Position numbers and translations under genes: made by a program. Below the pieces are notes generated by a model. The model was not told where the DNA came from. It did no database searches and was given only the letters and a program-made list of their open reading frames with translations. A DNA stretch of 24,000 nt from Acaryochloris marina S15 (lineage in GTDB: Bacteria > Cyanobacteriota > Cyanobacteriia > Thermosynechococcales > Thermosynechococcaceae), in contig NZ_CP064923.1 of assembly GCF_018336915.1 (NCBI RefSeq), forward strand, positions 540,998 to 564,997, in the 5' to 3' direction. Of this stretch, positions 7,347 to 7,422 are shown in pieces. Positions within the stretch are counted from its first letter, which is position 1; each line of letters opens with the position of its first letter.

Positions 7347-7422
7347 CGAAAGCTAGCTCAGTTGGTAGAGCATCAGACTCATAATCTGACTGTCACAGGT
7401 TCAAATCCTGTACTTTCCACCA
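7347..7422 (+). tRNA. tRNA with anticodon CAU (Met or Ile2 type), gene-encoded CCA and mismatches at both ends of the acceptor stem
   Basis: 76 nt. D arm is gctc-agttggta-gagc. The anticodon arm is tcaga-ctCATaa-tctga, with the anticodon at 7380-7382. The variable loop is ctgtc. T arm is acagg-ttcaaat-cctgt. Acceptor cgaaagc pairs with actttcc, with C1.C72 and C7.A66 mismatches. A73 and CCA (7420-7422) follow. It starts only 3 nt after the previous unit. Confidence 0.8.

Follow-up and report, generated by a model that had tools for sequence, protein, structure and literature searches.

What is a tRNA-shaped RNA with a CAU anticodon and a frayed acceptor stem doing directly upstream of an SPFH/Band-7 gene? 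Within the 24,000-nucleotide stretch of Acaryochloris marina S15 DNA that we analysed (the window), such a unit lies 416 nt upstream of the SPFH gene and on the same strand. The elements of the locus that bear on the question are the following.

7240-7249, plus strand: conserved box GTGTACCGCC, 26-32 nt upstream of U1, a distance kept in most cyanobacterial loci
7275-7343, plus strand: tRNA-like unit U1, its acceptor, D and T arms intact, its anticodon loop short and irregular
7344-7346, plus strand: spacer AAC, 3 nt between the U1 discriminator (7343) and C7347, read from the sequence
7347-7422, plus strand: tRNA-like unit U2, a 76-nt CAU cloverleaf with C1.C72 and C7.A66 mismatches and an encoded ACCA
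7427-7504, plus strand: U3, a tRNA-like body lacking an acceptor stem, predicted by RNAalifold from 15 loci, its parts being D-like (7427-7441), anticodon-like (7443-7459) and GNRA-capped (7474-7485) hairpins and a T arm (7488-7504)
7505-7838, plus strand: leader from U3 to the SPFH start codon, lacking a terminator-like site and about 80% identical within the genus
7839-9371, plus strand: soluble SPFH/Band-7 ("slipin") protein of 510 aa (Pfam Band_7, E 6e-31)
9414-9857, plus strand: PNK-type kinase (Pfam AAA_33; NCBIfam PNK kinase region, E 8.5e-14, which is under the curated cut-off)
9854-10615, plus strand: Thg1-like protein (TLP), a 3'-5' nucleotidyltransferase (Pfam Thg1 and Thg1C) whose start overlaps the kinase stop

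An earlier note on this DNA had described U2 as a CAU unit of 76 nt with two acceptor mismatches and an encoded CCA, and the molecule is as described. ARAGORN calls a tRNA-Met(CAT) at the same coordinates, and the Rfam tRNA model (RF00005) matches 7347-7419 with 61.1 bits (E 1.4e-12; gathering score, 29), marking just 1:72 and 7:66 as non-canonical in the acceptor stem. The two acceptor strands (5' CGAAAGC and 3' ACTTTCC) are apposed as C1.C72, G2-C71, A3-U70, A4-U69, A5-U68, G6-C67 and C7.A66, and the minimum-free-energy fold is a cloverleaf with a 5-bp acceptor stem. Three G-C pairs in succession are missing from the anticodon stem (UCAGA/UCUGA), and position 11:24 of the D stem is C-G. The length, including the encoded A73-C-C-A, can be read directly from the sequence, as can the claimed abutment of processing sites, with U2 beginning 3 nt past the preceding unit.

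We then compared 26 U2 orthologs. Overall, 94.5% of the helix cells are paired, compensatory change is seen at 13 of 21 pairs, and all four helices covary; none of 500 shuffles reached the observed values, and no slid register approached those of the true register. Mean column identity is 78%, and the anticodon and T stems are paired in every ortholog. The N1:N72 position is unpaired in 22 of the 26 (as A.A, A.C, C.A, C.C, U.C or C.U) and is therefore a family trait of U2; in two Acaryochloris orthologs it is paired (U at 1, A at 72). Inside this frayed end, positions 2-7 with 66-71 are almost sequence-invariant (RGAAGU/ACUUUY), and the family effectively has a 6-bp acceptor stem formed by G2-U7 with A66-C71. 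The second mismatch, C7.A66, is lineage specific: it is confined to Acaryochloris and a single metagenome-assembled genome, and the other orthologs have U7-A66. An ACCA tail is present in 14 of the 26 orthologs, the tail within Acaryochloris being ACCA, ACCC, ACCG or CCCC. Taken at the sequence level, the conserved acceptor strands and the ACCA tail suggest a mature, end-defined RNA.

These comparisons bear directly on whether U2 is a decaying tRNA pseudogene, as its two acceptor mismatches and the broken anticodon loop of the neighbouring U1 might lead one to suspect. We find this scarcely credible for an RNA that cyanobacterial families have in common, with compensatory changes at 13 pairs and with the anticodon and T stems fully paired, and in which the 1:72 "lesion" is the conserved state. 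The earlier note had also argued against random decay, and the conclusion stands because of the conserved compensatory changes and the 22 orthologs with unpaired N1:N72. The ground on which it had been put, a C1.C72 mismatch common to both neighbouring units, is accurate for this genome; in contrast to U2, however, 17 of 19 U1 orthologs pair 1:72, so the mismatch is not a trait shared by the two families.

A second possibility, toward which the earlier note had leaned, is that U2 is an accessory decoding tRNA (for Met or lysidine-Ile) like the members of cyanobacterial tRNA arrays. CAU is indeed the commonest anticodon among the orthologs (12 of 26), and CAU combined with A73 and an encoded CCA, all present in U2, would in principle satisfy MetRS. 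Against this, near-identical ortholog bodies bear at least 10 different anticodons as well as irregular loops: the remaining orthologs have CAC, UGU, UUU, AUU, UAU, GUA, CAG, GAG, UAG or CCU, or loops of 6 or 8 nt. Judged from this drift, the anticodon of U2 is not under decoding selection. An unpaired 1:72 is also an anti-determinant for EF-Tu, which needs a Watson-Crick pair at that position.

The tRNA complement of the 7.1-Mb genome points the same way. Three housekeeping CAU tRNAs are among its 69 tRNA calls, and a 22-gene tRNA array lies 2.5 Mb from U2 (C1:3093891-3099415, minus strand). In that array, several genes encode CCA and have odd stems, and two specify extra CAU tRNAs. CAU tRNAs are thus already present in the genome, three of them housekeeping and two in the array. 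The best identity to any genomic tRNA is at most 71% for U2 and 74% for U1, so neither unit was copied recently from a working tRNA or array member, and no close paralogue of either was found among the array tRNAs (identity, at most 74%). U2 is, moreover, linked to an SPFH gene rather than to the array or to translation genes. With the array so distant, the identities so low and the orthologous anticodons drifting, the accessory-tRNA leaning does not hold up, and we regard a decoding role as very improbable.

The earlier note had further stated that U2 is not initiator-like. This is borne out by the missing run of three anticodon-stem G-C pairs, the absence of which blocks initiator use, and by the missing A11:U24, both of which are found in the genome's own initiator-like tRNA (C1:4539619-4539695, minus strand). 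The accompanying argument from C at position 72 is weak, because that tRNA itself has C1.C72, rather than the usual C1.A72, along with an encoded ACCA. With 1:72 unpaired and the three G-C pairs missing, U2 would be tRNA-shaped yet excluded from translation. The earlier interpretation of U2, taken as a whole, is thus partly supported. It had left out of account the SPFH, kinase and Thg1-like genes further downstream, which give the decisive context.

U2 is the middle member of a cluster of three units. U1 scores 52.7 bits against the Rfam tRNA model, and ARAGORN reports it as an irregular tRNA at 7274-7344 with a 2-nt "anticodon." Among 19 U1 orthologs, 98.4% of the acceptor, D and T helix cells are paired, with nine compensatory pairs, and again none of 500 shuffles reached the observed values. 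At 8 of the 19 other loci, the last A of the N73-C-C-A of U1 doubles as the unpaired N1 of U2, and a single cut before G2 could therefore finish both RNAs. U3 is called by neither ARAGORN nor Rfam. RNAalifold nevertheless predicts all four of its hairpins from 15 loci, with 8 of 16 pairs changed on both sides and still pairing. The unit lacks the 5' strand of an acceptor stem, and its 3' half is lost in some Nostocales-type loci.

The sequences flanking the cluster are also conserved in part. The box upstream of U1 reads CGTATACCGC in Nostocales-type loci, and GTGTACCGCC/CGTATACCGC may represent a promoter element, a protein site or one strand of a helix. In Nostocales-type loci, a TACCGC box and a downstream GCGGTG box could plausibly form a closing helix around U1-U3 (about -16 kcal/mol), but the loci compared show no compensatory change in its support, and the Acaryochloris partners are inconsistent. 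We searched positions 6950-7900 for a sigma-70-like promoter and found none, and no terminator-like site was found between U3 and the SPFH gene or between the SPFH and kinase genes. More conserved boxes occur in the leader that follows U3. Pairing between GATAAG boxes and the U1 loop, to which they are complementary, was considered and is not supported, as boxes and loop change without compensation in other Acaryochloris loci. Separately, a 19-nt direct repeat, matched at 17 of 19 positions, lies on either side of the tRNA-like cluster (7073-7091 and 7589-7607). It was absent from the eight other loci checked, being found in this genome only, and on sequence grounds is probably a chance or lineage-specific feature.

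We next asked what accompanies the cluster elsewhere. Four other Acaryochloris genomes match the whole 760-nt intergenic region at about 80% identity, and five other genera match its tRNA-like part at 69 to 80%. Each of these loci has two tRNA-like units with differing "anticodons," and an SPFH ortholog is the next gene in all but one. In a 301-genome sample of the phylum, the SPFH N-terminal region was found in 16 genomes, our own included, and all 15 of the others have one or two tRNA-like units 0.4 to 1.25 kb upstream on the same strand. Altogether, of 26 cyanobacterial loci drawn from several families, 25 have the RNA cluster upstream of, and on the same strand as, an SPFH ortholog; the loci with an SPFH gene, besides our own, comprise 4 from the same genus, 4 from other genera of the family, 15 from the phylum sample and 1 from a metagenome-assembled genome. 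The remaining neighbour genes are unrelated from locus to locus, and the conserved module is therefore the RNA cluster plus the SPFH gene. Most cyanobacteria keep just these two components.

Three loci depart from the simple arrangement. In one genus (locus L016), U1, U2 and a partial U3 (1752-1900) are followed by an opposite-strand tyrosine-integrase gene (2255-3337), and no SPFH gene appears before the contig ends; the integrase may mark an island inserted at the tRNA-like cluster. In two Nostocales-type loci, the RNA cluster is separated from the SPFH gene by an OmdA/YdeI-family gene (L044, 3343-3921; L042, 3410-4000).

The SPFH protein itself has no hydrophobic segment (no 19-mer above 1.36). 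Its AlphaFold model (pLDDT, 83.7) consists of two beta-rich N-terminal modules, the SPFH domain and long helices. With the full-length model, Foldseek places stomatin best, followed by the major vault protein (E 1e-13 over approximately 590 columns). The two N-terminal modules of about 135 aa gave no convincing PDB match when searched alone: tandem cNMP-binding domains were matched with an E value of 9e-5 (probability, 0.44) and the vault with an E value of 0.037 (probability, 0.21). In view of these weak matches, we do not take the full-length vault match as evidence of homology. Since the modules alone do not match the vault repeats, the likeness is kept as an analogy and not as demonstrated homology.

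The fixed arrangement of cluster and gene raises the question of whether the units are free RNAs at all. They might instead be cis-acting parts of the SPFH mRNA leader, serving as RNase P/RNase Z processing signals or, in another form of the idea, as sensors whose cleavage by tRNA-targeting nucleases alters mRNA stability or translation. Such an arrangement would fit units that always lie on the same strand 0.4 to 1.25 kb upstream of the SPFH start, with no terminator-like site before the gene and further conserved boxes after U3. It fits poorly with the complete, unrelated OmdA-family gene that separates cluster and SPFH gene in two loci, with the genome that keeps the cluster by an integrase and has no SPFH gene on the contig, and with the acceptor-strand conservation and ACCA tail of U2, which suggest an RNA with defined ends. 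We consider a purely cis-acting role unlikely, although it overlaps with the reading we prefer, in which the units are RNA partners of the SPFH protein.

That preferred reading gains from a comparison with proteobacterial RNA-repair operons. In a tblastn search, the N-terminal 287 aa of the SPFH protein matched a Burkholderia stagnalis protein with 25% identity over 100% coverage (E 1e-11). The Burkholderia gene has a tRNA-like RNA with a 6-nt loop upstream, is followed by genes for RtcB and an RlaP-family nucleotidyltransferase, and faces RtcR. A metagenome search, with the Burkholderia protein alone as the query (an alignment combining it with the cyanobacterial proteins was too divergent), returned 69 loci with relatives of this protein, and most of those having enough flanking DNA show the same order. 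At about 60 metagenome loci, an SPFH homologue with a tRNA-like RNA upstream is embedded in an RtcR/RtcB/RlaP RNA-repair operon. The tRNA-like unit lies 260 to 330 nt upstream there, its anticodon varies, and its 1:72 position is often unpaired or a wobble. Some of these metagenome loci (L104, 106-3700; L099, 1002-1454; L106-L110) have ordinary-looking tRNA arrays, with as many as 11 genes, immediately before the tRNA-like unit and Band-7 gene, and in L104 and L099, RtcB is also found upstream.

[quoted passage not shown] As given there, the RNA is strongly tRNA-like and next to a Band-7/SPFH gene of the family found in RtcB operons. Here, U2 and U1 score 61.1 and 52.7 bits with Rfam, both are called by ARAGORN, and the cloverleaf covaries; a Band-7/SPFH gene is adjacent in this locus and in the 25 of 26 cyanobacterial loci; and the Burkholderia match places that gene in the same family as in the RtcB operons. 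Of genes for RNA repair, RtcB is non-adjacent, and a PNK and a TLP are adjacent in Acaryochloris alone. RtcB ligase was adjacent in no cyanobacterial locus examined. The A. marina genome does carry RtcB (C1:928363-929457) and two RlaP-family genes (C1:3872621-3874372), all unlinked to the U2 locus. Rfam holds no family for the band-7-associated tRNA-like RNA, and a search of the anti-phage defence library PADLOC matched neither the SPFH, PNK and TLP proteins of our locus nor the Band-7 and RlaP proteins from Burkholderia.

From the fold, its conservation, the synteny, the SPFH homology and the drift of the anticodon, we think it likely that U2 belongs to a module of band-7-associated tRNA-like noncoding RNA and is a partner or cofactor of the SPFH protein in RNA damage or repair rather than a decoding molecule. 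U1, U2 and U3 would probably be transcribed together with the SPFH gene or just ahead of it and then be processed. Each unit has a tRNA elbow (D and T arms), and U1 and U2 also have an acceptor stem, features by which tRNA-processing and tRNA-repair enzymes could recognise them. The RNA would most likely act by binding to an oligomeric SPFH scaffold as its partner or cofactor within an RNA-damage/repair module, where scaffold, decoy and sensor are the roles that we have considered. Their active form may be that of separate RNAs, a single large RNA or an mRNA leader. The module includes RtcB and RlaP under RtcR in proteobacteria and comprises RNA and SPFH alone in most cyanobacteria, and in Acaryochloris the PNK-TLP pair for healing 5' ends is attached to it.

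The status of this pair deserves separate consideration. The order SPFH-PNK-TLP is kept in five Acaryochloris genomes. The nearest solved structure to the TLP is the Methanosarcina Thg1-like protein 5AXK (E 3e-25), and by this closest relative the TLP would be of the template-dependent type. The kinase-Thg1 gene neighbourhood is already known (PMC2904730). In our sample, a Thg1-like gene occurs in 22 of 401 cyanobacterial genomes, with a kinase directly upstream at 16 of 23 loci, and the pair stands behind the SPFH gene in Acaryochloris only. Outside Acaryochloris, no tRNA-like RNA or SPFH gene was found within 1.5 kb of the cassette at the 23 cyanobacterial Thg1-like loci (L126-L148). Three other genomes carry the SPFH module and the Thg1-like module on different contigs. 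A TLP is present in 4 of the 16 sampled SPFH-module genomes versus 22 of 401 overall, related genomes not being independent in this comparison. The position of PNK-TLP next to SPFH in Acaryochloris may reflect functional coupling or an insertion accident, and in the latter case the adjacency may count against the repair-module reading.

If the coupling is functional, U2 could be a dedicated substrate of the pair: RNase P would cut before G2, so that U2 is made without its first nucleotide, and the co-transcribed PNK and TLP would complete or remodel the 5' end, the TLP adding G opposite C72. Several features are suited to this. U2 resembles a 5'-truncated tRNA with a 6-bp stem and an N72-A73-CCA overhang; where N1 doubles as A76 of U1, as at 8 of 19 loci, cleavage at G2 would complete the two RNAs at once; the nearest solved relative of the TLP marks it as template dependent; and the gene order is stable across the five Acaryochloris genomes. 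On the other hand, N1 is also unpaired in lineages without an adjacent TLP, most of which have no TLP at all, and being present with or without the enzyme, the unpaired N1 of U2 did not evolve for it. Moreover, 1:72 is paired (U-A) in the two Acaryochloris orthologs mentioned above, and the other PNK-TLP cassettes have no tRNA-like RNA or SPFH gene within 1.5 kb. We therefore hold both the 5'-truncated form of Acaryochloris U2 and its completion by the pair to be improbable, and continue to prefer a more general partnership of the RNA with the SPFH protein.

The possibility is worth stating because of what it would mean. We know of no biological substrate of the bacterial Thg1-like reverse polymerase, and U2, beside the Thg1-like gene in Acaryochloris, is a concrete candidate. 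If true, U2 would be the first natural substrate of a bacterial 3'-5' RNA polymerase and would give such an enzyme its first physiological role. The system would then parallel, in bacteria, the 5' editing of mitochondrial tRNAs, with a vault-like SPFH scaffold to organise it. Irrespective of the enzyme pair, the cyanobacterial version of the module is compact, with two clean cloverleaves and a third unit that lacks an acceptor, and it is widespread in culturable strains, including Acaryochloris marina MBIC11017, Chlorogloeopsis fritschii PCC 6912 and Chroococcidiopsis thermalis PCC 7203. It also follows a simple structural rule, in which the acceptor sequence is conserved with the first position unpaired while the anticodon drifts freely, and the RNA should therefore be easy to detect and to mutate. 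For annotation, such units are not to be counted as tRNA-Met, tRNA-Gly and so on.

Several known systems share parts of this design. Initiator tRNA-fMet resembles U2 in its CAU anticodon, its A73 and encoded CCA, and a 1:72 position without Watson-Crick pairing; U2 differs from it in lacking the three G-C pairs and in having C-G rather than A-U at 11:24 and A-U rather than C-G at 3:70. Cyanobacterial tRNA arrays, such as the delta-plasmid cluster of Anabaena PCC 7120, have about 20 or more units for many amino acids. They share with our locus an encoded CCA, tight spacing and odd stems, whereas the cyanobacterial module has three fixed units (two of them callable), accompanies an SPFH gene and is not related to the array members by sequence. 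The mitochondrial tRNAs of Acanthamoeba and Dictyostelium are edited at their 5' ends and repaired by Thg1-like proteins, and bacterial TLPs repair 5'-truncated tRNAs in vitro. The mismatch at the first acceptor position, the templating base 72 and the adjacent TLP gene all recall this editing; the U2 mismatch, however, exists in TLP-less lineages too. The eukaryotic vault, with its major vault protein and vault RNA, offers a soluble SPFH-type shoulder, long helices and small structured RNAs, but stomatin scores better and the N-terminal modules alone miss the vault repeats, which leaves an analogy only.

Another parallel is the YrlA Y RNA with Ro60/Rsr (rsr-yrlBA-rtcBA), in which a tRNA-mimicking RNA likewise stands beside a ring- or cage-forming protein and RNA-repair genes; YrlA-type Y RNAs have been proposed to be repair or decay cofactors (bioRxiv 10.1101/312249). 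The RNAs themselves differ, as the YrlA model (Rfam RF02553) gives 17 bits versus a gathering score of 69 and the Ro-binding stem of YrlA is absent here. The A. marina genome does have a TROVE (Ro-like) gene (C1:4913412-4914254), which lies 4.4 Mb from the U2 locus. Closest of all is the b7a-tRNA, which shares the tRNA-like RNA directly upstream of a Band-7/SPFH gene, a homologous SPFH protein, and the short or drifting anticodon loops and frayed 1:72 that are frequent in RtcR/RtcB/RlaP loci too. The cyanobacterial locus differs from these in having no adjacent RtcB, RlaP or RtcR, in the PNK and Thg1-like protein that Acaryochloris adds, and in an RNA that is a fixed U1-U2-U3 trio. With the class described as in the preprint, at second hand, and the assignment made from sequence comparison, the U2 cluster would represent a new, three-unit cyanobacterial form of the b7a type.
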